Shown: positions 2,738 to 43,803 of the stretch, one piece after another | Position numbering within the stretch: position 1 is the stretch's first letter | Layout: each line of letters starts with the position of its first letter | From: a virus | Length of the DNA: 44,450 nt | Virus genome (UHGV): UHGV-0157893 | Strand: one strand, 5' to 3' | Translations under genes and position numbers: made by a program | The notes under the pieces: generated by a model | The model's database searches: none | The model's input: the letters and a program-made list of their open reading frames with translations, nothing else | What the model was told of the DNA's origin: nothing

Positions 2738-5700
2738 GCTGTCGTTGATGTTCTAAATGATCCGGTGCCTCTTGCTACTATCATTGTTGGAGAATACAAC
2801 GCGGTACAATATGCGTATCCTTCAGATGATGATGTTTGAGGACAATATATTTTCCCGATAATATCTGATGCTTTTAAACCAGAAAAAGCGCATTGCACTG
2901 TTAATGTGCATCCACCATAAGGCACGTAATATGAAATTGTTTTGTTTTTATCTCCGCAACTAAACGTTACGTTATAAGTGGATCTATATTCACCAGACAT
3001 TAATGAAATAGTCGCCATAAGCATAACTGATTTCGTCAATGCATTATCCGTGCTGTCTTTATATGTGATGGTTGCGCTATAACTTCCGTTATGCCCAAGC
3101 ACTCGATCTGGACCAACCCCCATGTTAGCAACGTCACCGACAAATGACTTTGCCTCTACTGTACCTTTAAACTTCCCGCTTGTGGCCTGAATCTCACCAG
3201 TGAATTTACCAGATGTTGCGTACACCGTACCGCGTACAGTGACGTTGTTGAACTCCGCATTGCCGTTTTTATTTAGCATCCAGCCAGCCGAACCAGCTTT
3301 ATAGTTGGTTGACTGAATTTGCTGCGCAATCTTCGCGGTAGTGATTGATGCGTCTCTGATCCACGCATCACGGATGTAGCAAGCACCGTTAGTAACATAG
3401 AACGGGGTCTGATAGGAGCCACCTGCCGCAGTCATAAGCACGAAACGGTCAACGAGGAAAATACACTGCGATTGAACGTTAGTCCCGCTACCAGTAAGGC
3501 CGAGCGACATTCCTGTAGCGTATTTCATACCGTTTTTATCAGTGGCAATCTTAATTGAATATGACGCATCAACGTTACCTTTGAAGTCAGTCAGTGCTTT
3601 TGATGTCGTTTCTATCGCCGTTGTGTTTCCGTTAATAGTTACTTTCAACTGGTCGATTCTGGTTGACAATGCCTCGTCTGCCGTTGCCATAGCCTGTGAC
3701 CATTCCGTGATGCTTGAGTTTACATCGTCGAAAGATGCCGAGATCTGGCCAAATTTTTCCGCGCTTGATGTTTCATGCGTAGAAAGTGCAGTTGACACTT
3801 CGGATACTTTCGAATTAATCGTACTGGTAAGCGATGAGTTAAGGCTGCTGATTGCGTCAGTGCGTGCATTCTTCTCATCTGCGATCGCTTTATCCATCCT
3901 GGTTACGTTGCTTGTCACCTTGCTATCGAGCGTGGAAATTGACGCATTAACCCCGCTAATAGCTTCTGCGCGTGCGCTCGCCTCATCTGCGATTGCTTTA
4001 TCAAGACGGGAAACGCTCGCGTCGGTTTTGCTTTCAAGACTACTGACGCTGGCGTTAACGTTGCTAATAGCTTCTGCGCGTGCGCTCGCCTCATCTGCGA
4101 TTGCTGTGTCTACCCTTGCTATTTCCGCTTTTGTTTTTGTTTGTCCTTTCCTGTATTTCGCCTCAATAACAGTGCTCATCTTGCTTTGCGCCATTGAGTT
4201 ATTAATAAGCGCCAGAGATGCGTTTTGCAGACTTGCTTTCGCCTGATCTATCTCGTCGCTGTTTTTATCAACCTCACTTTTAACGCCGCCAAGCGTCGCG
4301 CTGATACCTGATATCGCCTGAGCACGTGCGCTTGATTCATCAGCGATAGCTTGATCAAGACGGCTAACACTGGCATTTGTGTTATTTTCAAGCGTTGTTA
4401 AATCAGCTTTAACCACTGTTATTGCGTCGCTTCTTGCCTGCGTTTCATCTGATATTGCATTATCGAGGCGCTTAACGCTGGCGTCAGTTTTCTTGTCAAG
4501 TGTTGAGATACTTGCGTTCACGTCGCTGATAGCCTGAGTACGCGCACTTGTTTCGTCTGCAATTGCCTGATCAAGACGGTTTACGCTGGCGTCAGTTTTC
4601 TTGTCAAGATTGCTTATTGAGGCATTTACACCGTTAATAGCTTCAGCGCGGGCGCTGGCCTCGTCAGCTACTGCGCGTTGCACATTAGAGATCTGACCTT
4701 TAAGGTTTGTGTCCATCACATTCATTTCTGCCGTGATGGTTTCCAGTGATTCCGCTGTCGCTTTTTTCTCTTCAGCGATAACGTTGTCAATGCGGTCAAT
4801 TTCCGCTTTCGTCTCTGTCCTGCCTTTCTTGTACTGAGCGGTAAGAGTTACGCGAGTGTTAGTCTGTGCAAGCGAGTTATTAATAAGAGCAAGTGAGGCG
4901 TTTTGCAGACTTGCTTTTGCTTGCGCCAGTTCGCTGCCAACTTTTTCGCTAGACACCTCCAGCGAGTCGATTCTCGACTCATGCTGTCCAATATCATCGG
5001 CGTTTTCCTTAACTTTTTTATAAAGATCTTCCGTTTCTTTTTTGAGCGTATCAGTATCAGCTTTTATTGATCCTGTTTCTATGGTTAGGTTGTCAGTTTC
5101 AGTCCTTAAATCGTCAGTTATGTTGGTCAGATTATCAGTTGCAGCTTTGAGGTTGTCAGTAGCAGTTTTAAGGTCATTCGTAGCGCTTTCGATAAGATCA
5201 GTGCGGTCGCCTAGATCTTTAATGTCACCAACCATTTCTTTAAATTGTTTGGAATTCATTACGTCTTTGGTGACGTAATCGGTAATTTCATCAAAGTTTT
5301 CTGTTGGCTTACCTGACGCTTCCACAAAGTCAGACACACCAAAAGCGTTACGCGCGCGCACATAAACGTAATATGTGTGACCTGTATTCATGCCGCCAAA
5401 CGTCCACTGATGACCACGCCCGGTATATTGTGCTTTAGTGGTTATTGATGCCGGATCAGTGATCTGCGTTTCACCTGAGTAATAAAACTCGTAACTGGTA
5501 TCAGTGGTGAGCGTTGTTCTGCTGATCGGGTAAACTGTAGCCTGGAATACACCGGGAACCCAATTAACGCCAACTGGGGCCGCTGGTGCGCCAATAACCA
5601 GATCGACAATGCTTTCCGCACCCTTCATGCCCGTGTCATTTCTGCCACGAATGCCTAATGAGTAGTTGCCAGCATCAATGCCATAAAAATCATAACTGTA

Positions 5701-8924: not shown

Positions 8925-9629
8925 TCAACCCACCTTGCTCGATCCTGGGAAACATGAAATTGGTAACGGATTCGGGCGCGGGAAACGTAAACGGCAACCG
9001 CTCAGGCGGTGGCTGCATTTATCCAGCTTTGGATCGCTGGTCGATTCGTCTTTATCAGTAGCTACAGGGCCGCCACTGTATCCGCAACCGTCGCCGCGAT
9101 ATTGCCATTGGCAAACGTCAGCAAGGATTGTGCGCCCTGGGATAACCGCCTTGTCAGCATCAATTGGCGTTGACAGCTCATATTGCACCTGGTCGGCTGT
9201 TTCTTCGCTCATCGCCTCAACGACGTAAAAAGACACCGCCTCGATAGACGGATCTGCATCCGGGTTGCCGTTGGGGAAGTTGATGGCGTCCAGGTATTTT
9301 ACTTCCACCTGGCGGCGTGTAACTTTCATTCCTCGCAGGTCGTTGAAATCGTTATTCATCCCGGTGATTAGGCCGCCAATGTTGGCTACAACCATTTGCG
9401 GGCGTGAATAGACACCCTCGTTTTTCATTTCGAAGCCAGTGGCATCGATAGGGTAGCTGTTGTAAGCCACCCCCTTCCAGATAACCGGGCCGTAATAGCC
9501 ATTCACGCCGGAATGGAAGCGGATAACCTCGCCACCCAGGGGCGTGAGGTCTAATTCAAACAAGTCAATTACCGCGCCGACTCCGGCATCGACGGAATCA
9601 ATAATCATTTCTCTCGGAATATTGCGCAT
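8925..9629 (-). CDS. L: Minor tail protein L
   Basis: 234 aa; ATG 9629 with AAGGTGAG RBS; aligns by eye with lambda L (IDLFELDLTPLGGE, VKYLDAINFPNGNPDADP, CQWQYRGDGCGYSG, DKCSHRLSGC). Confidence 0.85.
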   Translation of the reverse strand: MRNIPREMIIDSVDAGVGAVIDLFELDLTPLGGEVIRFHSGVNGYYGPVIWKGVAYNSYPIDATGFEMKNEGVYSRPQMVVANIGGLITGMNNDFNDLRGMKVTRRQVEVKYLDAINFPNGNPDADPSIEAVSFYVVEAMSEETADQVQYELSTPIDADKAVIPGRTILADVCQWQYRGDGCGYSGGPVATDKDESTSDPKLDKCSHRLSGCRLRFPRPNPLPISCFPGSSKVG

Positions 9630-9758
9630 TTTCTCACCTTGTCATTCTGTGATCTGCGTCACGCTAAATCATACCAAAATGGATTGATCGCGGTTTTTAC
9701 AATATGTATATTTTACTCAAACGGAAGCATAGTTAACAAAATGGCGCGGAGGTGCGTT

Positions 9759-9947
9759 ATGACTGAAAAGCTATGGAAGTTGACGGTATTCATGACAGAC
9801 GGTAGGGAAAAGGTTATCGCCCTGTATGACGACGAGGGTGAAGCATTGGTTGACGCGCTTTTACTTGCTGAGGATGACCGCCTTTTGGGATACCAGATCG
9901 AACCTGTCAAATATGAGGCTAACAAAAATGAAAAAATACAGTCTTGA
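9759..9947 (+). CDS. Hypothetical small acidic protein (moron cassette gene 1)
   Basis: ATG 9759 with GGAGG RBS 5 nt upstream; 62 aa; opposite strand to tail genes; 3' end overlaps the next gene. Confidence 0.5.
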   Translation: MTEKLWKLTVFMTDGREKVIALYDDEGEALVDALLLAEDDRLLGYQIEPVKYEANKNEKIQS

Positions 9948-10275
9948 TGTGTGGTTAAGTGGTAGCAAGGAGTGTTTCGGATTATTTGATAGCGAAGAAG
10001 TAGCCCTGGAAGAAGGCAGGATTCTTGAATGTAGTTTAGGCCATCCAGTGAAATATGCTGCTAATCCGGTACATATAGTTGATGAGGTGGAAGATATGAA
10101 CCCGAAAGATATTAATGGTAGCTTCACTGCTTATTATGCAGATTCTATGGACCAGTCTTGCCCTGGTGAAATACACGCAAAAGGTTTCCCGGCTGACGAT
10201 CCAGAAGCAAAACGCGAATACGAAAAAGCGGCGAAAGATTTCTGTATCGATAACCTTTCAGCATTCGATAAATAA
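9928..10275 (+). CDS. Hypothetical protein (moron cassette gene 2)
   Basis: ATG 9928 (MKKYSLDVW...), 115 aa, overlaps gene 1 out of frame (translational coupling). Confidence 0.55.
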   Translation: MKKYSLDVWLSGSKECFGLFDSEEVALEEGRILECSLGHPVKYAANPVHIVDEVEDMNPKDINGSFTAYYADSMDQSCPGEIHAKGFPADDPEAKREYEKAAKDFCIDNLSAFDK

Positions 10276-10284
10276 GGCGGCAAC

Positions 10285-10533
10285 ATGGGGCGGCGCAATC
10301 ACGGTGATTATGTGTACACGTTGAAACAGGCCGCCCGCCTCATCGGTTATCATGAACACGAATTTATTGATTTGCTGATTGAGCGCGGGATACTGTACCA
10401 GGTCTGTTTAACGCTGTACCCGAAAGCGAAATACCTACATGAAAAGTTATTCATCATCATGACGGATGAAAACCAGGTTAACCATTCATTCGTCACTGAT
10501 AAGGGCGTTAATTATCTGCGTGATAACTTATAG
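10285..10533 (+). CDS. Hypothetical protein with putative helix-turn-helix (moron cassette gene 3)
   Basis: ATG 10285 with AAGG RBS; YTLKQAARLIGYHEHEFIDLLIERGIL resembles excisionase/MerR-type HTH. Confidence 0.45.
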   Translation: MGRRNHGDYVYTLKQAARLIGYHEHEFIDLLIERGILYQVCLTLYPKAKYLHEKLFIIMTDENQVNHSFVTDKGVNYLRDNL

Positions 10534-10659
10534 GTGACTGATTATAAAAATAGAAGTTTTGGCGCTAATAATAATGTGGTTGATAGTATTTGGCGTTCAT
10601 GCTGTAGATCTGGACTGGAAAACGATAGCAGAAAATATAGCATTAATGGAAATAGAATA

Positions 10660-10695
10660 AAAATAACCCCGCTTCGCGCGGGGTCGTGTTTATAC
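10660..10695. terminator. Bidirectional terminator ending the plus-strand cassette and the M operon segment
   Basis: CCCCGC-ttcgc-GCGGGG hairpin at 10667-10683 flanked by A/T runs on both sides. Confidence 0.5.
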
Positions 10696-10887
10696 GCCAT
10701 CAACCAAAAATAAAACCTCCTTCCCTTCCCGGGATCTACACCCAACGTACCCATCACCAACGTCGTGAAGATACCATATATCGCCGTTGTCAGCTTTTAC
10801 AGTAAGGTCGTTGATCTCATAGTCGTCAAACAATGTAAAAGCGTAAGTTTTGTCAACTACACAAGTCCCGTACATAACAACCCCCAT
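10690..10887 (-). CDS. Hypothetical small protein translationally coupled to M
   Basis: ATG at 10887 shares a base with the M stop (TAATG); 65 aa. Confidence 0.4.
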   Translation of the reverse strand: MGVVMYGTCVVDKTYAFTLFDDYEINDLTVKADNGDIWYLHDVGDGYVGCRSREGKEVLFLVDGV

Positions 10888-11240
10888 TAGCCAACAACTT
10901 GCTCAAACGTTGCGTTTAGCGTGTACAAAGGCCCGTCTTTAGTCATGCTCCATTGCCGACAGACAAAAAGCCTTTGCACGTTATCCATTGACGGCGACCA
11001 GTAAAAAGCCTCGACCGCGCCGCGCGCCCTCAAGAATGCTTCCGCCTGGATTGCTACGTTTCCACCATCACCACATCCGGCGCTACTGCCTTTAAACACC
11101 AGGGTGTAGCTATCAAGCAATGGATTGATACCTTTTACCTGTCTTTGCTCATAACCATCGCCCAGCTTAACAACAGATACGTCTGGCTTCCTGGTCACGC
11201 TGTAGCTTCTTTGCGGCGTCCATCTGAACACTTCCGGCAT
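10887..11240 (-). CDS. M: Minor tail protein M
   Basis: ORF track starts at TTG 11255; ATG at 11240 after a G-rich RBS; VFRW, LGDGY and C-terminal FEQVV match lambda M. Confidence 0.75.
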   Translation of the reverse strand: MPEVFRWTPQRSYSVTRKPDVSVVKLGDGYEQRQVKGINPLLDSYTLVFKGSSAGCGDGGNVAIQAEAFLRARGAVEAFYWSPSMDNVQRLFVCRQWSMTKDGPLYTLNATFEQVVG

Positions 11241-11301
11241 AAAACCCCCCCACAAGTTACATTTTGTATATATCTTTACGCGCTTCTACGCGAAAAATAA
11301 G

Positions 11302-11318
11302 ATCATTGTCACAATGAT
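11302..11318. promoter_or_regulatory. Perfect 17-bp palindrome (operator-like) in divergent intergenic region
   Basis: ATCATTGT-c-ACAATGAT, next to a conserved 25-mer (11275-11299) and a TTTACAAAATGG motif (11328-11339). Confidence 0.4.
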
Positions 11319-11409
11319 TATAGCTAGTTTACAAAATGGCTTCACATAGCACGCAACAAGATGTATATAGAAAGCAAGAAGAAAGTAGTACCAACGAAGG
11401 AGGCCCAAA

Positions 11410-11565
11410 ATGAAACGCTATGTAGTAGTAATGCTAAATAACGCATTCGAACAAGTGGAAATAGCAATCGTTAAGGGTTTCGACGACGCATTCAAATACG
11501 GTCAATTCATGATGAATGCGAAAGAAGATGAATACCGGGACTTCTTCCTGAAGGCACTTAACTAA
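11410..11565 (+). CDS. Hypothetical small protein (51 aa; below ORF-track cutoff)
   Basis: ATG 11410 preceded by AAGGAGG; MKRYVVVMLNNAFEQVEIAIVKGFDDAFKYGQFMMNAKEDEYRDFFLKALN; stop 11563-11565. Confidence 0.5.
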   Translation: MKRYVVVMLNNAFEQVEIAIVKGFDDAFKYGQFMMNAKEDEYRDFFLKALN

Positions 11566-11582
11566 GGATGATGGGGTGAGTT

Positions 11583-11837
11583 ATGAAACTGGTAGCGATT
11601 GACAGAAATCTGAAAGCACAGAAAAACGCACAGGATCGGATCATCAAGAAAGGTAAGGAATTACTTAAAGCCTTTCTGAGAAAAGAAGTTTACCCCAAAA
11701 AGTTACGCGACGGTTACGGATACAAAATGGATATCAATCTTGATTGGAGGCTGTTTAGCGAAGATTTGAAGGTTTGGTTAATTGTTGAGCACCATGCCTA
11801 TAACAAGTTATGTGGCGTGAAAGGCACTCATAAGTGA
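11583..11837 (+). CDS. Hypothetical basic protein
   Basis: ATG 11583 with GGGGTGAG RBS; 84 aa, Lys-rich N-terminus; co-oriented with the preceding small gene. Confidence 0.5.
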   Translation: MKLVAIDRNLKAQKNAQDRIIKKGKELLKAFLRKEVYPKKLRDGYGYKMDINLDWRLFSEDLKVWLIVEHHAYNKLCGVKGTHK

Positions 11838-11894
11838 GTCGAGATATTCGAAAGGGGATATATCGCGCGGAATGGTCGTTTATAAATACGAAAA

Positions 11895-11928
11895 ATAACC
11901 CCGGCATTGCACCGGGGTTTAGTTTATT
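11895..11928. terminator. Bidirectional terminator
   Basis: CCCCGG-cattgca-CCGGGG hairpin (11899-11917) with a T-run after it on plus and an A-run before it; ends the plus-strand cassette and the tape-measure gene. Confidence 0.6.
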
Positions 11929-14266
11929 TGCGGCGAGGTTGCAACATTCCGCCTGGTCTTTGAGATTCCCTTGTTATCATTTTCATGGCTACACGTTCCA
12001 TTGTTAATTCAAGTCTGCGGCTGTCTTCGTCGCTGAATCCGTTCGTGGTCTGAATGCTGATACTGACAGGCATACTAATACCGCCACCGCCGCCAATATC
12101 ACGGCCCGGAATAACTCTGCCGTTCTCGCCAGGGATCATATATTGATTGCCGTTAGATGTCTGGAATAGCTCCGGCCTGTTGTGTTCCCCTACGCGGTAC
12201 ATATTACCACCAATGACGCTACCACCATTAAAGCGACCGCCGCCGAAAATTGACGTAGCCAGCGACATGATCGCAGTGAGCGCCGCCGAACCAGCCGCCG
12301 CCCAGCTACCGCCAGTTGACGCCGCAGTTGCCGCCGCTGCTGGGGCCGCCGCCGCAGCAATGCTTCCCTGAGCTGCTACCGCGCTTGCTGTTGTACTTGT
12401 TTGCGTGGCCTTGCTTTGTGTCTCCATCATGATCTGATCTGCTATCCAGTTTGCAGCTATGTCTGAGAGTCTGTTACCGATATTGCCGAGTATATTGCTT
12501 CCTAAGTTAGCAAAAACATCACTCAATGATTGAGTGCCGTTTAACAGGCCAACAAGCGCATTACTCATTCCGCCTTTAAGGCCATTAACACAATCACCGA
12601 TAAGGCCGTTTGTGTCGCTTTGCGCCTGCCATTGTTCCCATTTCAGATCGCGGATCTGTTGCTCATAGGCTAACAATTCCTGTTTCTGTTGCGCTTCAGT
12701 AGCGCCCAGGTCTATAAGCATTTGCTTACGGATGGCCCATTCATTTTGCGCCTGCTGGATGGGGTCAACTTCGCCTTTTAGCTGATCCATCGGGCTTACT
12801 ATTTGTGACCATTTATCACGCAATTCATCTACCGGAATTTGTGCTAATTCTTCTTTCAGTTCCTTGCCGATCCCTTTTTGCGCGGCGCGGTACTCAAGGA
12901 GCGTGATTTTACCCTGGGCAAATGCAGCATCAATGGCCTTGCCGTTCTCCAACGCTTTGCGCATGGCGGCGGCGTCTTTGTTGTACTGATCAGAAACGCT
13001 TATACCTTTGTCACCAAGCCGATCAGCTTCCGATTTCTTCTCTTTTTTCTGTTTTTTCGGCTTGTCTACTGGCTTGTCGAATCCGGTAATCGCTCCGTCA
13101 TTGGCAGCATTCTGTTCATTTTTCCTTGCTTCTTCTGTAGCCTGGATTGCTGCGGTCAGATCATCCTGTAGTTGCATGACCTTGCCAACGGTCTTCCCGT
13201 ATTTCTTCTCGTAGTTGCTGTTATATTCGTCGGTTTGCTCTCCTACTACCTCCTTCATCCATTTATAGCCATCCATTAGCGCCTTGATTGGCGTCACCAT
13301 TGCGATGATCTTCTCTGCCACCTCTCCAGCCTTAACAGCCACATCATCAAACATGTCGATAAATTCGCTACCAGCCGTTTTGAGTGTGTCGAAGCAGGTT
13401 TTAGCGAATTTAGCGCCATCGCCAAGCCCTTTAACGCCTTTCGTGATCAAGTCGATAGCTGAAACAACGCCATCTGACACGCCAAAAAGATCATCCAACT
13501 GCTCAACAAGGCCCATAATTTCTACTTTAAGCTCATTGATAGCCATGCCGGATGTGCGCGGCAACTGAGCAAACTTATCGTTTGTTTCCTGCGTAGCCGC
13601 CTGTATTGCGTTAACCATCCTTTCAGCCGTGATCTTGCCGTCCAGCATTTCGGCGCGGAACTGGCCCATTGATAATCCCATATGGCGGGCCATTGTTTGT
13701 ACGATGGTCGGCGTATTTTCAAGCAGGCTGTTAAATTCTTCGGCACGAAGAACACCGCCGTCGATAGACTGACGGAATTGACGCATTGAGTTAGACATCT
13801 GTTCCGCTGACGCGCCGCCTAATGCACCCATTTTCTGAATAGTGCCAACCAGGTTAAGCAATTGCCCTTCCGTAGCGGAGGTGTTTTTTAGTGAGATAGC
13901 CAGGCCTTGCCATAATTCGCCAGTATCTTTCAGGCTCTGCCCCGTCTCCCTGGATATTGCTTTCAGGCCGTCGAAAACCCGTCCGGCGGACTCCGCATCG
14001 CCCGTAAGCATTTTGATTTTTACGCGAAGCATTTTTGCTTGCTCCGCCATATCCATAAATTGGCGCACAGCCTCCGCAGCAATTAGCAGATGGATAACCC
14101 TGGTCAGTGCCTTGATGGATGTTTTCAGGGTGTTTACCTGGCGGTCAGCCTGTTTTGCGCCGCGCTCTATACGATCAAAGGCCTGGTCTGCCTGTCGTTG
14201 TGCAACGAGAAGTTGACCAGTTTTCGCATCAACTTCGTAATAAATTGTACCTACACTGGTAGCCAT
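11924..14266 (-). CDS. H: Tail tape measure protein
   Basis: 780 aa; ATG 14266 with GAGGT RBS; helical Ala/Gln-rich body; glycine-rich C-terminus; sits between tail chaperone and M. Confidence 0.85.
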   Translation of the reverse strand: MATSVGTIYYEVDAKTGQLLVAQRQADQAFDRIERGAKQADRQVNTLKTSIKALTRVIHLLIAAEAVRQFMDMAEQAKMLRVKIKMLTGDAESAGRVFDGLKAISRETGQSLKDTGELWQGLAISLKNTSATEGQLLNLVGTIQKMGALGGASAEQMSNSMRQFRQSIDGGVLRAEEFNSLLENTPTIVQTMARHMGLSMGQFRAEMLDGKITAERMVNAIQAATQETNDKFAQLPRTSGMAINELKVEIMGLVEQLDDLFGVSDGVVSAIDLITKGVKGLGDGAKFAKTCFDTLKTAGSEFIDMFDDVAVKAGEVAEKIIAMVTPIKALMDGYKWMKEVVGEQTDEYNSNYEKKYGKTVGKVMQLQDDLTAAIQATEEARKNEQNAANDGAITGFDKPVDKPKKQKKEKKSEADRLGDKGISVSDQYNKDAAAMRKALENGKAIDAAFAQGKITLLEYRAAQKGIGKELKEELAQIPVDELRDKWSQIVSPMDQLKGEVDPIQQAQNEWAIRKQMLIDLGATEAQQKQELLAYEQQIRDLKWEQWQAQSDTNGLIGDCVNGLKGGMSNALVGLLNGTQSLSDVFANLGSNILGNIGNRLSDIAANWIADQIMMETQSKATQTSTTASAVAAQGSIAAAAAPAAAATAASTGGSWAAAGSAALTAIMSLATSIFGGGRFNGGSVIGGNMYRVGEHNRPELFQTSNGNQYMIPGENGRVIPGRDIGGGGGISMPVSISIQTTNGFSDEDSRRLELTMERVAMKMITRESQRPGGMLQPRRK

Positions 14267-14393
14267 GATTTAACCTCATGCAAAAATGTGATCTGTGTAT
14301 CTATTTTATACAAAATGGCTTTACTTCAATGACTCCATTTTGTATAAGGAAGCTAAAGGGAATGGTCAGTAAATCAAGTTAGCGTGGTGGGTT

Positions 14394-15053
14394 ATGAAAC
14401 GGTTAGCAAAAGTGGCAATGATTGCGGCGGTATTGGGTCTGGTTGGTTGCAATGAGGATAATGAAAAAGCGCCTATAGTGACCAATCAAGAGCAACAAGC
14501 ATTAGCAGAGAAAAATGCTAAATGGCTTGCAGAACAACAAGCAAAACAAGCCGCATACGATGCACAGTTAGAAAAAGAAAATGCTGGTAAACAGTGGCTT
14601 GTAGTTGAAAGAAAAGATGATATGCAGGACGCAAAAAACGTATTCCTTTTTGTGAAAGCAGAACAATTCAGCGGAAGTCTTGATGCTTTCCCGACACTGA
14701 AGGCACAGGATAAGAATAAACCGGTATTAACAATCGCTTGCCAGGGTAATAAAACAAAAATGTTCGTAGCATGGTCACACCATGTAACTGACGCCGGGGA
14801 CACTACTTATATTAACTACCGGATCGGCGTTCACAAAGCTGTAGCTACTGAGTGGTGGCGGTCAACTAATTATAAAGCTCTTGGATTATGGGACGGCAAA
14901 AAAGCCATCCCAATGATTAAAAAACTGGTTAACGAAAAACAATTCATCATTGAAGTAGTGCCGGAAGCTGGCGACATTGAGAAAGCAGTGTTTAACATTG
15001 ATGGTCTTTATAACCACATCGACAAAGTGAAAAACGCTTGCAACTGGAATTAA
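14394..15053 (+). CDS. Lipoprotein (moron; candidate superinfection-exclusion or envelope factor)
   Basis: ATG 14394 with GGTGG RBS; signal peptide with lipobox LVGC; 219 aa; plus-strand island in the tail module. Confidence 0.6.
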   Translation: MKRLAKVAMIAAVLGLVGCNEDNEKAPIVTNQEQQALAEKNAKWLAEQQAKQAAYDAQLEKENAGKQWLVVERKDDMQDAKNVFLFVKAEQFSGSLDAFPTLKAQDKNKPVLTIACQGNKTKMFVAWSHHVTDAGDTTYINYRIGVHKAVATEWWRSTNYKALGLWDGKKAIPMIKKLVNEKQFIIEVVPEAGDIEKAVFNIDGLYNHIDKVKNACNWN

Positions 15054-15063
15054 GGGGTAAATC

Positions 15064-15438
15064 ATGAAAAAAATAATCAAAGCGGTTCTCATTGGTGTTA
15101 TGGCTTTAGCTCTTACAGGGTGCGCAAGATCAACTGATTTCGTTAAGTTAGCTGATAAAAATTTGCAAGTTGGAATGACTTGTGAGCAAGTGAATAAAAT
15201 AATGGGGGAACCACAAAGAATCGAGCATGACGGTAATTATAGTTATCACGTATGGTATTCAGTAACCAGCACGATAGGATTTACTTACATGGATGTTGAA
15301 GAATTATCCCCTTCAAGGGTTATCGCAAAGTTTGATAACTGCATCCTAAAAGAATGGAAAGATCGCAGTAAGGCAAAGTCTGTATACAATACAATCACAC
15401 ACAGTTCACCAGGTACAGCAATTAAAGATTTCAATTAG
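15064..15438 (+). CDS. Lipoprotein with BamE/SmpA-OmlA-like motif
   Basis: ATG 15064; lipobox LTGC; LQVGMTCEQVNKIMGEP resembles the BamE fold signature; 124 aa. Confidence 0.55.
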   Translation: MKKIIKAVLIGVMALALTGCARSTDFVKLADKNLQVGMTCEQVNKIMGEPQRIEHDGNYSYHVWYSVTSTIGFTYMDVEELSPSRVIAKFDNCILKEWKDRSKAKSVYNTITHSSPGTAIKDFN

Positions 15439-16129
15439 CAAAACGCCCGGATCTACCGGGCTTTTCTTGCTCACGATTTTTCATTCTTTCTAGTGCCTTT
15501 TTAGCGGCCTCCATTTGCTCGTCATAAGCACGTTTATTTATGTGAATGTTTGGCTTACTTTTCTCGTTTCTTTCGTCTGGCGGCGTTTTAGCGCGTACAG
15601 CGGCCCTATATCCGGTCATTGTCATATTCCATGCTTCCGATTCTGACAAGCCCAGGTGAGCAACGGCAGAATAGACGAATTCAAGGACGTTAAAAGTCGG
15701 CTTATATTCCCCTTCCGGGATTTCCCCGGACTCTTCTTCCGGGCCATCACCAATAAGACCGTGGTACATGCAGTGCTGCGCAAGCGTGATGATATCCTCG
15801 ATCGGCATTAATCCGGGCTTTAACTTTAACTTACCCGAAGGAGTAAACCAGCATTCGCCCAATAACGGGCCTATTTCGTCGTCTGAGCAACATTTCAGGA
15901 TGTGCATTGATGTCTGAACTATTTCACCATAACACCGCGCCAGAATGCGATTGCGTAGGTCTGGATCTGCTGGCAATCGTGATGGATATTTGCCGCCGTG
16001 GATAAGTGCGAAATATTCGACAAGCTCACTATCGTTGCCGATTTTAGCCATCGCAGCAAAGCAAGGATTAAACTCATAGCGCTTACCGTTCACCACGGCA
16101 GCAAATTGTCCTGTACGAACATGGATCAT
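15431..16129 (-). CDS. Putative tail assembly chaperone
   Basis: ORF track start at 16138 is GTG; ATG at 16129 with AAGGTGA RBS; position between major tail protein and tape measure; acidic C-terminal region. Confidence 0.45.
   Translation of the reverse strand: MIHVRTGQFAAVVNGKRYEFNPCFAAMAKIGNDSELVEYFALIHGGKYPSRLPADPDLRNRILARCYGEIVQTSMHILKCCSDDEIGPLLGECWFTPSGKLKLKPGLMPIEDIITLAQHCMYHGLIGDGPEEESGEIPEGEYKPTFNVLEFVYSAVAHLGLSESEAWNMTMTGYRAAVRAKTPPDERNEKSKPNIHINKRAYDEQMEAAKKALERMKNREQEKPGRSGRFAN
15445..15468 (+). terminator. Rho-independent terminator after the lipoprotein pair
   Basis: gcccgg-atcta-ccgggc followed by ttttctt. Confidence 0.6.
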
Positions 16130-21354: not shown

Positions 21355-22279
21355 ATTTAGCGTGCGCAACCTTATAGTTTTCTTGCGCCCGATCTAATAT
21401 TCGTTTGTTTAATATGTTACCGTCTTCGTCAACCAATACGGTAATCGTGCTACATTTGCAGTTAATTGAATTTGGGGATCTGCTCCACCATTCGCGCTGC
21501 TCATCTATGGTGTATGTTTTCCCGTGCCGCTGCGCGTGCGATAGCCTGGTAGTCGGTGACAATGCCGAAATGTGCATTTGCATGGTGCGCAGATTAAGCT
21601 CTTCTGTCGCCGCTTCTGCCTCATCCATACGCGCTGTGCGTAACGCTGTGCATATTTCAGTTCGGGCAATACGTTTGCACCTGTATAGCGGCAATTGCGT
21701 TTCCTGCTGCAATGTGCGCGCTATTTCCAGTGGATTTAAACCACGGGCCATCCCTTCGGTTAATCGCCGGGCCATATCCTTCTTGATCTGTGCTGTTAGC
21801 CCGCGCATTTCCTCAAATACACGGGTACGAACAAGGGCAAGGCGCGTGCGGTAAGTCGTACTTGATAGCACGGCGGATACATCAGGATAAGCGCTTGAGT
21901 AAGTAACAGACTGGTTGGCAAGGTTGGCGTATTCCTGTGCCGTGCCGCGCTGATATGCCACCTTCACGTATTCCTGCCAAAACCAAAAACTTTCCGGGTC
22001 GGTTAGCTCGAATATCTCATCAATCATGTCGCTGGCGTCCTCCAGCATGTCGTGCAATTCATCCATGTAAATCTGGAAGGTGTATTTCTTATTAACAGCC
22101 AGGCTATATTGTATTCTGTCCAGTATGGCGATATATGGATCGGCTATTTTCTTCAGGCAGGATTTGAAACGCTTAATAGCTCCCGACCGTAACTTACCTG
22201 TCATGGTCGGGTCTTCGGTGTTAGATGGCATTATCGCGGCGGGAGGTATTCGCCTGATTATTTTCTTCACCTTCATCAT
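21335..22279 (-). CDS. Head morphogenesis protein (SPP1 gp7 / Mu F-like minor head protein)
   Basis: ATG 22279 with GAGGA RBS; 314 aa; position right after portal. Confidence 0.6.
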   Translation of the reverse strand: MMKVKKIIRRIPPAAIMPSNTEDPTMTGKLRSGAIKRFKSCLKKIADPYIAILDRIQYSLAVNKKYTFQIYMDELHDMLEDASDMIDEIFELTDPESFWFWQEYVKVAYQRGTAQEYANLANQSVTYSSAYPDVSAVLSSTTYRTRLALVRTRVFEEMRGLTAQIKKDMARRLTEGMARGLNPLEIARTLQQETQLPLYRCKRIARTEICTALRTARMDEAEAATEELNLRTMQMHISALSPTTRLSHAQRHGKTYTIDEQREWWSRSPNSINCKCSTITVLVDEDGNILNKRILDRAQENYKVAHAKYGEDWE

Positions 22280-23591
22280 CGTTTTCCTCTTCCATTTCCA
22301 CTACACTGGCTGGGCCATCGTATCCGGCAGCCTCGCGGATCTCGTCACCGCTAAATATTTCTTCACCAGTAGCCAGGCAAGCCTGATTGATTTGCGCCAT
22401 TTTGTGTGCCGCTTCCAGTAGTTCGGCTTTGGTCATGGCGTTAAGGTCGTCCCACAGTACAGATACGTCTACTGGCATACCGATAAGGCGGAGATTTGCC
22501 ATCTTGCGGAATAGTTCTTCAAGCTCGCCTCCTATTTCCTCGCGGCGGGTCATACAGCGATTATTGAAGTAGCGGAGGTCTTCAGTTGATGCGCGTTCAC
22601 CCTGCTGATTCCCAACCAGGATACGCGTCGGGATGTCGATACCAGCGGCGGCAGTTTGCAGGTTGACGTCATAGGTTGCAGATGGATCGGCTACGGCAGT
22701 CACCAGCGGGCTAACACTTGCCCCTTGTAATGCCATCATCACATCATTACCCCTGTTCATTTCTGCTGCTGCCTCGTTGAATTTCTCGCGTAGCTCTGTA
22801 ACGTCGCAATCGTATGTTGCAGCCAGGGAACGGAAATCAATCTCTTTATCGAACGAGATAGCCAGTTGACGCGCGGCATTTTTCAGGAATGACTCACCGC
22901 TGCCGCCTTCCACTTTCTCCAGTGACACAAAGGCGTTATAGGAAGGCTCAAGGAAAGCGATGGCATCATCAGAATAGTCGCCAAATATGAATATGCGATC
23001 AGGGTGGATCTTTCTCGCAATGGTCTTACTGTTAATGCGTTCTTTGTATTCCCACCATGTTGGCAGGCCATAGTTTTCTTTATCCGGGTTTTCTTCGAAG
23101 TCCTTCGGCGTAAGAGCACCAGCCCACACAGGGGTGAATTTGGCAATGCCTACGCCTTTTGTTACTGGCTGATCCCACGGCTTATTATCTCTGACATGAA
23201 TTAACAGGCCCGCATAACGACCGATGAGGCGGCGGCGATCGCATTCAGCTATGACGCGCCAGAAACGATTATCAAATTGCTTTTTAATTTCTCTTTCCCA
23301 CGGCGTTTCCGTTTCTGCTTTCTCGTCTTCCGTACCTTCAATCAGCGTTGGCCTGGTGCGCCAGCACGTAGTAATGATCTTCTCAATGGCACCGTGAGCG
23401 ATACCACCGCGACGATACAGCTTGTAAAGATCTTCATAGGTGATTTCTTCTTTGAATCCGTATTCACTCCACGCAGCGTCACGTTTTGCATCAATACCCA
23501 TTGAGAATGGGTTAGCGGCTGCATAGCGGGCAAAGGCCGCCTGGCGTTGTGACAAGGCAGCATTAACCGCCAATTCTAAATTGGATGGCAT
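22221..23591 (-). CDS. Portal protein
   Basis: ATG at 23591 with AGGAG RBS (the earlier ATG at 23612 lacks an RBS); 456 aa with acidic C-terminus; directly downstream of terL. Confidence 0.7.
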   Translation of the reverse strand: MPSNLELAVNAALSQRQAAFARYAAANPFSMGIDAKRDAAWSEYGFKEEITYEDLYKLYRRGGIAHGAIEKIITTCWRTRPTLIEGTEDEKAETETPWEREIKKQFDNRFWRVIAECDRRRLIGRYAGLLIHVRDNKPWDQPVTKGVGIAKFTPVWAGALTPKDFEENPDKENYGLPTWWEYKERINSKTIARKIHPDRIFIFGDYSDDAIAFLEPSYNAFVSLEKVEGGSGESFLKNAARQLAISFDKEIDFRSLAATYDCDVTELREKFNEAAAEMNRGNDVMMALQGASVSPLVTAVADPSATYDVNLQTAAAGIDIPTRILVGNQQGERASTEDLRYFNNRCMTRREEIGGELEELFRKMANLRLIGMPVDVSVLWDDLNAMTKAELLEAAHKMAQINQACLATGEEIFSGDEIREAAGYDGPASVVEMEEENDDEGEENNQANTSRRDNAI

Positions 23592-23669
23592 AATGTTTAC
23601 TCCTGAATACATGTTTACGCGTTGCTACGCGAAAAATAGAAAAATTAGTGAGTGATTGTGAGGCAGATT

Positions 23670-35255: not shown

Positions 35256-35376
35256 AATGCTCCCTCCCTTTAAGGTGATTTCTACGCATTTCAGCGCTGC
35301 CGGATTTTTAAAGAGCATTTCGTTTGCTTGAAGTATACAAAATGGATACACGTAAACAAGACGAAAAGCGCCATTA

Positions 35377-35392
35377 TGTGACCTGTATCACA
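35377..35392. promoter_or_regulatory. Perfect TGTGA-N6-TCACA palindrome (CRP-consensus-like) in 160-bp intergenic region
   Basis: tgtgacctgtatcaca at 35377-35392, flanked by inverted copies of the GTATACAAAATGG / CCATTTTGTAAAC motif. Confidence 0.4.
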
Positions 35393-43155: not shown

Positions 43156-43803
43156 TTATGGCAGGTTTACGATCTTCGCATCAACCACCACGCCTATAAT
43201 TTTTGATTCTGGATTCATAGGGATTGGCGGATACAGCGGATTGAGCGAACGTAAAAGCCTTTGACCTCCATCAATAATCAACTGTTTAAACGTCGGTATC
43301 TGCCCTTCCTCAAGCTGGGCTATAACCAGTTTGCCGTCAATAGCTGGCGCGTGCGGGTCCACAAGTATCATCGTCCCCGCCGGGATGCTCAACCCCTGCG
43401 GCGCGTTCATTGATTCACCTTTGGCAACCAGCCAGTAACTGTCATCTGAACAAATAACGCTAGTCGTAACGTGTCGTAATGCTGAACGCCTTGCGTCATC
43501 CATATTGTTTACTGTGTCCTTCCAGTCAATAACCGGGTAACTACCTAAATCACGCGGCGGCACGGCCTGAAGTGTATTAGAAACAGAATCATCAATGACC
43601 ATACCATCATGTGTAACAGTGAACTGCCGACGACCAAGCTCTCGCATAATCCGCGCAATATCTTCAAGATTTGGCTCGCGGCGACCGTTCAGCCAGTGTG
43701 ACAGGCCGCCTTTAGTTATCCCCATGCGATCCGCTAGTGAATCCTGGCTCATGCCCTGCGCCCGCATGAGCTGCTTTGCTAAGTCATACCATTTTGTTTT
43801 CAT
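43156..43803 (-). CDS. cI: CI-like repressor (HTH_XRE plus S24 LexA-type peptidase)
   Basis: ATG 43803; HTH (QDSLADRMGITKGGLSHWLNGRR); C-terminal S24 domain with GESM (Ser) and a downstream Lys (KQL). Confidence 0.85.
   Translation of the reverse strand: MKTKWYDLAKQLMRAQGMSQDSLADRMGITKGGLSHWLNGRREPNLEDIARIMRELGRRQFTVTHDGMVIDDSVSNTLQAVPPRDLGSYPVIDWKDTVNNMDDARRSALRHVTTSVICSDDSYWLVAKGESMNAPQGLSIPAGTMILVDPHAPAIDGKLVIAQLEEGQIPTFKQLIIDGGQRLLRSLNPLYPPIPMNPESKIIGVVVDAKIVNLP

Follow-up and report, generated by a model that had tools for sequence, protein, structure and literature searches.

An antisense moron of mEp021-group coliphages encodes a predicted RelE-like toxin-fold protein and a small partner

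Do two small genes that lie antisense within the late tail operon of a temperate coliphage encode a toxin and its antitoxin? The question arises from positions 11256-11928 of UHGV virus genome UHGV-0157893, a stretch of 44,450 nucleotides analysed at its full length (the window). Here the plus strand carries consecutive genes for proteins of 51 residues (p51) and 84 residues (p84). An earlier examination of the DNA letters without database searches (the sequence-only reading) had located the two between tail gene M and the tape measure gene, which our annotation confirmed (M belongs to PF05939). It had considered them a small acidic and a small basic protein reminiscent of toxin-antitoxin or regulator pairs. 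We favor the view, with a probability of about 45%, that the cassette is a moron whose effector, p84, has a RelE-like toxin fold and targets translation or mRNA independently of any antitoxin; p51 would be expressed alongside it as a dispensable partner.

The p51 frame at 11410-11565 was present in the sequence together with its AAGGAGG ribosome-binding site (RBS), as had been described. A ratio of non-synonymous to synonymous substitution (dN/dS) of ~0.05 over 26 distinct related nucleotide sequences indicated strong purifying selection and thus a real gene. For p84, dN/dS was 0.07-0.10 over 36 distinct related sequences, again strong purifying selection. The contrast in charge also held, with isoelectric points (pI) of 5.1 for p51 and 9.9 for p84. 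Both genes are annotated in mEp021 (gp68 and gp67), in MagusPhagus and in RefSeq, and 44 of 46 related IMG/VR loci showed the order p51-p84.

The sequence-only reading had stated that no family could be assigned. For p84 this proved wrong: the protein matched Pfam PF24732 with 45.3 bits (cut-off 24.4; E 9e-12), residues 19-75 aligning with positions 2-67 of the 67-position profile. PF24732 was likewise matched by all seven diverse p84 homologues scanned, and RefSeq names the protein "ParE family toxin-like protein". No match to p84 was obtained in NCBIfam or PADLOC, including their toxin-antitoxin models, and searches of the PDB by sequence and by profile were empty. The sequence family is small, with seven matches at E<1e-3 among 1.8 billion representatives, one of them spurious, and p84 was not found in GTDB species representatives. 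The family assignment of p84 is already contained in Pfam and RefSeq; neither protein has been studied so far. Neither PF24732 nor the name given to p84 by RefSeq turned up in any paper, and the publication on the mEpimmI genome is silent on the two genes, the 12-nt motif described below and promoters.

The structure of p84 was predicted with AlphaFold. With close homologues only, the model had a pLDDT of 54.7 and was unusable; a diverse alignment was used instead and yielded a pLDDT of 87.5 and a pTM of 0.76. The model has a hairpin at the N-terminus, one helix, three strands and a helix at the C-terminus, which make up a compact alpha/beta fold of the RelE/ParE superfamily that can be superimposed on solved toxins. 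Its structural matches were almost exclusively toxins of this superfamily, and HigB, RelE, YafQ and YoeB scored above ParE. An hhalign comparison of the p84 profile with the single sequences of YoeB and RelE was not significant. K23, K40, R56, W65, H70 and N74 were invariant across the family down to 32% identity, and Y73 was nearly invariant in the close set. The catalytic residues of RelE are R61, R81 and Y87 (PMC2807027). In the model R56 on strand 3 and H70 and Y73 at the end of strand 4 lie where RelE has these residues and may be their equivalents, a correspondence drawn by visual alignment only.

In type II systems a toxin gene is expected to be unstable without its antitoxin. Yet E. 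coli UMNK88 (identical to L026) and the metagenomic phage L023 had each lost p51 by a clean deletion, and both had an intact p84, the promoter-like site and an RBS. Between the p84 genes of these two p51-less sequences, 8 nucleotide differences were synonymous and 2 codons differed non-synonymously, and no substitution was unique to p84 sequences lacking p51. Furthermore, one identical p51 protein occurred with three p84 allele classes, i.e. the two proteins did not co-vary. p51 was also more conserved than p84, which is the reverse of the usual conservation pattern of toxin-antitoxin pairs. Taken together, the p51-less lineage, the lack of co-variation, the higher conservation of p51 and the lack of a common partner of p84 homologues elsewhere (see below) argue against an obligate antidote. 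Thus the natural variants do not support p51 as an indispensable antidote, and the toxin-antitoxin reading is unproven.

Relatives of p84 in PF24732 were detected in other mobile elements, namely Klebsiella phage RaK2, Yersinia phage fHe-Yen9-04, Serratia phage OS31 (as 'HigB-like') and Pantoea plasmids. Similarity to p84 was in the range of E 1e-5 to 1e-4 with TM scores of 0.69-0.84 in Foldseek and of 29-37% identity in tblastn. The genes lie in arrays of small genes on phage contigs, behind a ParB-like gene in OS31 and in a core resembling an integrative and conjugative element in the Pantoea plasmids. Neither a p51 homologue nor a common neighbour was found in the loci compared. RaK2 and fHe-Yen9-04 are large phages which we take to be virulent. 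Small zinc-ribbon-like proteins with a CxxC...CxxC pattern adjoined p84 homologues in three unrelated contexts (L003 3864-3980, L004 2857-3129 and L002 3927-4403, the latter being mEp021 gp66); this adjacency may be a coincidence or a recurring association.

p51 itself is, as far as the databases reach, an orphan confined to mEp021-group phages. Its 57 homologue clusters were all at least 76% identical and all came from this group. It had no relative in Pfam, NCBIfam, PADLOC or the PDB and hence no match to a DNA-binding or antitoxin family, and it was not found in GTDB species representatives. Paralogy of p51 with the small proteins of the first tail-module cassette (9759-10275) was considered and rejected because hhalign probabilities were 0.1-0.2%. 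Thus the toxin half of the suggested pair found support in PF24732 and in the predicted RelE/ParE-superfamily fold, whereas the antitoxin half did not, p51 having no family match, being absent from the UMNK88 lineage and not co-varying with p84.

A classical type II pair is a serious alternative, which we consider somewhat less probable. p51 would be a minimal antitoxin without DNA-binding domain that neutralizes p84, and the pair would stabilize the prophage or, upon degradation of p51, cause abortive infection. The order of a small acidic gene, a gap of 17 nt and a basic gene of RelE fold is exactly the type II layout; the sizes and charges are canonical, the two co-oriented genes share a single promoter-like site and a single terminator, and both are strongly constrained. 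Strain Ecol_244 has a truncated p84 next to an intact p51, and truncated copies are common among chromosomal toxin genes. Against this stand the constrained p84 that persists with promoter-like site and RBS in the lineage without p51, the missing co-variation, the better conservation of p51, the unmatched toxin-antitoxin models of PADLOC and NCBIfam and the family members elsewhere without common partner. In addition, the cassette has neither a recognizable DNA-binding or antitoxin domain nor a conserved operator. This feature is not universal, however: PaaA2 of the PaaR2-PaaA2-ParE2 system is a small antitoxin without DNA-binding domain. PDB entry 5czf was among the structural matches of the p84 model.

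The type II layout weighs against a p84 that acts without antitoxin, and so do several other points. p51 was never encountered apart from p84, and a functional link between the two is therefore suggested. The lineage without p51 might tolerate p84 because its promoter is silent or because a chromosomal antitoxin cross-protects, and recombination may account for part of the divergence between the p51-less sequences. p84 alleles of type C carry the exchanges K48A, D50R and Y73F. Finally, RNase activity and toxicity of p84 are putative, as are the activity of the cassette promoter and the timing of its expression.

The exchanges in type C also bear on a further explanation, namely that p84 is a catalytically inert binding module with a toxin fold, for example one that decoys host antitoxins or defences based on toxin-antitoxin systems, or one that binds the ribosome, with p51 as an unrelated moron product. 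Positions that are putatively catalytic do vary in type C, p84 is tolerated without p51, and the family occurs in large, presumably virulent phages where addiction modules make little sense. The three allele classes, which were 100%, ~82% and 67% identical to the p84 of the window on a near-identical background of promoter and p51, are as expected if a binding surface were contested in an arms race. On the other hand, the invariance of R56, H70 and N74 throughout the family would be explained by an active site no less well than by an interface, and there is no positive support for any binding target. We regard an inert p84 as improbable. The first 16 residues of p84 were conserved in all alleles (relatives L001-L056). 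The pattern points to recombination with breakpoints within the gene's 5' end and to a diversified sheet and C-terminal helix.

The third explanation, a regulator pair in which one of the proteins binds a perfect 17-bp palindrome (ATCATTGTcACAATGAT) as operator of the divergent M/cassette region, is very improbable, because such palindromes are no commoner than chance predicts, this one has decayed in 38 of 44 relatives that conserve the genes, neither protein matches a DNA-binding family, and the fold of p84 is that of a toxin rather than a helix-turn-helix or ribbon-helix-helix. The palindrome at 11302-11318 is perfect as reported by the sequence-only reading; its interpretation as an operator found no support. 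Palindromes with arms of at least 8 nt and spacers of at most 3 nt numbered three in the window compared to 3.2 ± 1.8 in simulations. All eight pairs were kept in 6 of 44 distinct related intergenic sequences, most of which retained 3-5 of 8. With 76% conservation it was the least conserved intergenic block, and its left arm was 63% identical to the window. The chance-level frequency and the decay in relatives ruled out a conserved operator, and judging from the sequence the palindrome is probably not an operator at all.

What remains of the intergenic region fits an accessory unit with signals of its own (Table 1). In an alignment of 44 distinct relatives the hexamers TTCACA and TATATA of the predicted promoter were 98% and 94% conserved compared to 82% for the 17-nt spacer, and the site was kept in the lineage without p51. 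A strict consensus promoter scan did not list it. From its conservation the site probably drives the cassette. The interval separating p84 from the tape measure gene, counted from the stop codon of p84, ranged from 86 nt in the window, where there is only the terminator, to ~1 kb or more in relatives with assorted small genes in between. The conserved hexamers with a variable spacer, the terminator and the variable cargo slot identify the cassette as a moron with a conserved proximal pair of genes and a hypervariable distal slot. It has a promoter-like site, albeit a predicted one, and a terminator, lies between conserved phage genes and varies among relatives. The cassette is an autonomous accessory unit and no component of the tail. 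A comparison with related prophages, which the sequence-only reading had proposed as a check, confirmed that genes and position are conserved; p51 was lost in UMNK88/L026 and L023 and the palindrome was degraded. A search of 9000-15600 against Rfam, aimed at RNA antitoxins and other RNAs, yielded only a sub-threshold chance match.

Table 1. Coordinates of the genes and signals at the M/tape measure junction (window numbering).
Feature	Position	Strand	Remarks
p51 gene	11410..11565	+	51 aa, mildly acidic, pI 5.1; phrog_29810
Shine-Dalgarno sequence AAGGAGG of p51	11397..11403	+	6 nt before ATG
p84 gene	11583..11837	+	84 aa, basic, pI 9.9; PF24732, ParE-like toxin domain; 17 nt past p51
Shine-Dalgarno-like sequence GGGGTGAG of p84	11573..11580	+	conserved in relatives
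Predicted sigma-70 promoter TTCACA-17 nt-TATATA	11341..11369	+	read from sequence; -35 11341-11346, -10 11364-11369
Recurrent motif copy TTTACAAAATGG	11328..11339	+	ends 1 nt before -35 hexamer (about -37 to -48); 97% conserved
Recurrent 12-nt motif copy TATACAAAATGT	11259..11270	-	18 nt 5' of M ATG (11240); 0.92 identity to window among relatives, partly conserved
25-mer CTTTACGCGCTTCTACGCGAAAAAT	11274..11298		two TACGCG units 10 bp apart; conservation 97.5% (44 relatives)
Perfect 8+1+8 (17-bp) palindrome ATCATTGTcACAATGAT	11302..11318		clade-specific
Bidirectional intrinsic terminator	11897..11919		-15.0 and -16.3 kcal/mol; cassette end on +, just past tape measure stop on -
Tape measure gene	14266..11924	-	tail module
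Tail gene M	11240..10887	-	PF05939

The recurrent motif noticed by the sequence-only reading, TWTACAAAATGG, is indeed overrepresented, with 14 sites at up to one mismatch in the window versus 0.95 expected. They include 2291(-), 9733(+), 11259(-), 11328(+), 14307(+), 14335(-), 30151(-), 35334(+), 35401(-), 38905(+), 43034(-) and 43877(-). The copies at 11259(-) and 11328(+) flank the M/cassette intergenic region. Four sites, 11328(+), 14307(+), 14335(-) and 43034(-), end exactly 1 nt before a -35-like hexamer. The motif often occurs in inverted pairs of variable spacing, e.g. with perfect 13-nt arms at 14306-14318 and 14335-14347. It sits ahead of all three plus-strand cassettes of the tail module in the window, MagusPhagus and mEp021, and one copy is located 73 nt 5' of the gene for a CI-like repressor (43803..43156). 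Its position ahead of the cassettes and the repressor gene suggests that TWTACAAAATGG is a phage-wide regulatory signal by which the accessory cassettes are co-regulated with the CI-like repressor gene. Between the pair at 35334 and 35401, in an intergenic space of the early region, we observed a perfect CRP-like palindrome, TGTGATACAGGTCACA (~35377-35392).

Recurrence of the 25-mer upstream of portal, likewise reported before, was confirmed and is not random. Positions 11265-11299 matched 23604-23638 to 86%, the second copy being located between terminase and portal, and the core TTTACGCG-N4-TACGCGAAAA was exact at 11275-11296 and 23614-23635, where chance would give 0.08 matches. Read along the late (minus) strand, the element precedes the start codons of M and portal by ~30 nt. 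A small hairpin of -10.6 kcal/mol is possible on minus-strand RNA. The element could be an RNA element of the late transcript or a protein-binding site.

Regarding the setting, 11000-12200 of this mEp021/mEpimmI-group E. coli prophage was 92% identical to MagusPhagus and ~84% to mEp021, and a prophage of LP-26-E1-261 was 100% identical over 11256-11928. The locus was carried by 32 of 5426 complete E. coli genomes. On the minus strand the tail module runs from the tape measure gene to M and a small open reading frame, then L, K, I and J. It is interrupted by three plus-strand cassettes (9759-10533, 11410-11837 and 14394-15438), of which the p51/p84 unit is the second. The position of this unit between its promoter-like site and its bidirectional terminator was constant across the mEp021 (mEpimmI) temperate coliphages. 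The first cassette has three genes, the last of which encodes an 82-residue protein with a KilAC domain (antirepressor C-terminal), and ends at a terminator at 10665-10685. The third, which separates the tape measure gene from the tail chaperone region, encodes a 219-residue VasI/TagO-like protein (type VI secretion-associated PF11319) and a 124-residue protein with weak BamE/DUF7738 similarity.

Two strong bidirectional intrinsic terminators lie within the minus-strand tail operon, at 10665-10685 after the small open reading frame downstream of M and at 11897-11919 after the tape measure gene. Because of their location late transcription must be antiterminated if it is to extend into M, L, K, I and J. 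Among the other late genes, that for a J-like central tail fibre holds a 108-nt (36-aa) unit in seven tandem copies at 3836-4680, and its homologue in LP-26-E1-261 is longer by 216 nt. RefSeq labels the portal homologue (22221-23591 (-); L058 31033-32403) as 'anti-CBASS protein Acb1 family protein' while Pfam assigns Phage_portal_3; the Acb1 label is probably an annotation artefact.

For an antitoxin-independent p84 we propose the following scheme. An autonomous accessory unit would have been inserted antisense into the late tail operon at the junction of the tape measure gene and M. Its own sigma-70-type promoter, with the 12-nt motif just upstream, probably transcribes the unit up to the bidirectional terminator. 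The effector p84 would be a minimal protein of the RelE/ParE superfamily, nearer to the mRNA endonucleases YoeB, RelE, YafQ and HigB than to the gyrase poison ParE. We infer an action on translation or mRNA, from which the phage or the lysogen may gain in conflicts between phages or in host takeover. p51 would be a co-transcribed, lineage-specific partner that may modulate p84. During lytic growth antiterminated late antisense transcription would collide with transcription of the cassette and silence it, in the logic of a 'non-contiguous operon'. A more far-reaching version of the scheme, which we think unlikely as a whole, is that PF24732 comprises phage-borne, antitoxin-independent RelE-type mRNA endonucleases of temperate and large virulent phages. 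In lysogens p84, expressed from the class of promoters marked by TWTACAAAATGG, a motif that the CI repressor gene shares, would cleave transcripts of superinfecting phages, and p51 would be a new non-essential modulator that does not bind DNA.

The architecture of the locus is standard, and as a moron it is ordinary to moderately interesting. If p84 were the toxin of an ordinary toxin-antitoxin pair, the result would be routine prophage annotation. The p51-less variants and the occurrence of the family in large phages lend interest to a free-standing effector. If p84 is an active RelE-like RNase without obligate antitoxin, toxin folds would also serve as free-standing phage effectors beyond addiction and abortive infection, and the uncharacterised PF24732 would gain a function. 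The locus provides a natural experiment, since some prophages carry p51 while others lack it and three alleles of p84 share one background, and the 12-nt motif ties three tail-module cassettes to the repressor gene.

How does the cassette compare with known systems? YefM-YoeB and RelB-RelE of E. coli are the obvious references. At the level of sequence profiles p84 is not significantly similar to YoeB or RelE, and it has one N-terminal helix and a beta-hairpin instead of two helices. Unlike YefM and RelB, p51 lacks a DNA-binding domain of the Phd/YefM or RelB type and is dispensable in natural variants, and the cassette lacks a conserved operator. Structural similarity of p84 to the toxins of PaaR2-PaaA2-ParE2 from an E. 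coli O157:H7 prophage and of ParDE was below that to the RNase branch, with 5-9% identity; in contrast to PaaR2-PaaA2-ParE2 the cassette has no separate regulator gene, and p51 is unrelated in sequence. The members of PF24732 in other elements share family and fold with p84. Their genomic contexts differ, none has a p51 homologue, and all are uncharacterised. Antisense-embedded defence genes inside late operons have been described as parts of non-contiguous operons (PMC11364771). HK97 gp15 and taiEcA/atiEcA of phi80 resemble our cassette in that an independent unit of promoter, gene and terminator lies opposite to the late operon and neighbouring cargo is variable (PMC11364771, PMC3594210); the p51/p84 cargo is unrelated to theirs. 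Lastly, RegB of phage T4 is an RNase with a RelE/YoeB fold and no known antitoxin that inactivates mRNAs (PMC3014915). By analogy, p84 may follow the same antitoxin-independent logic.
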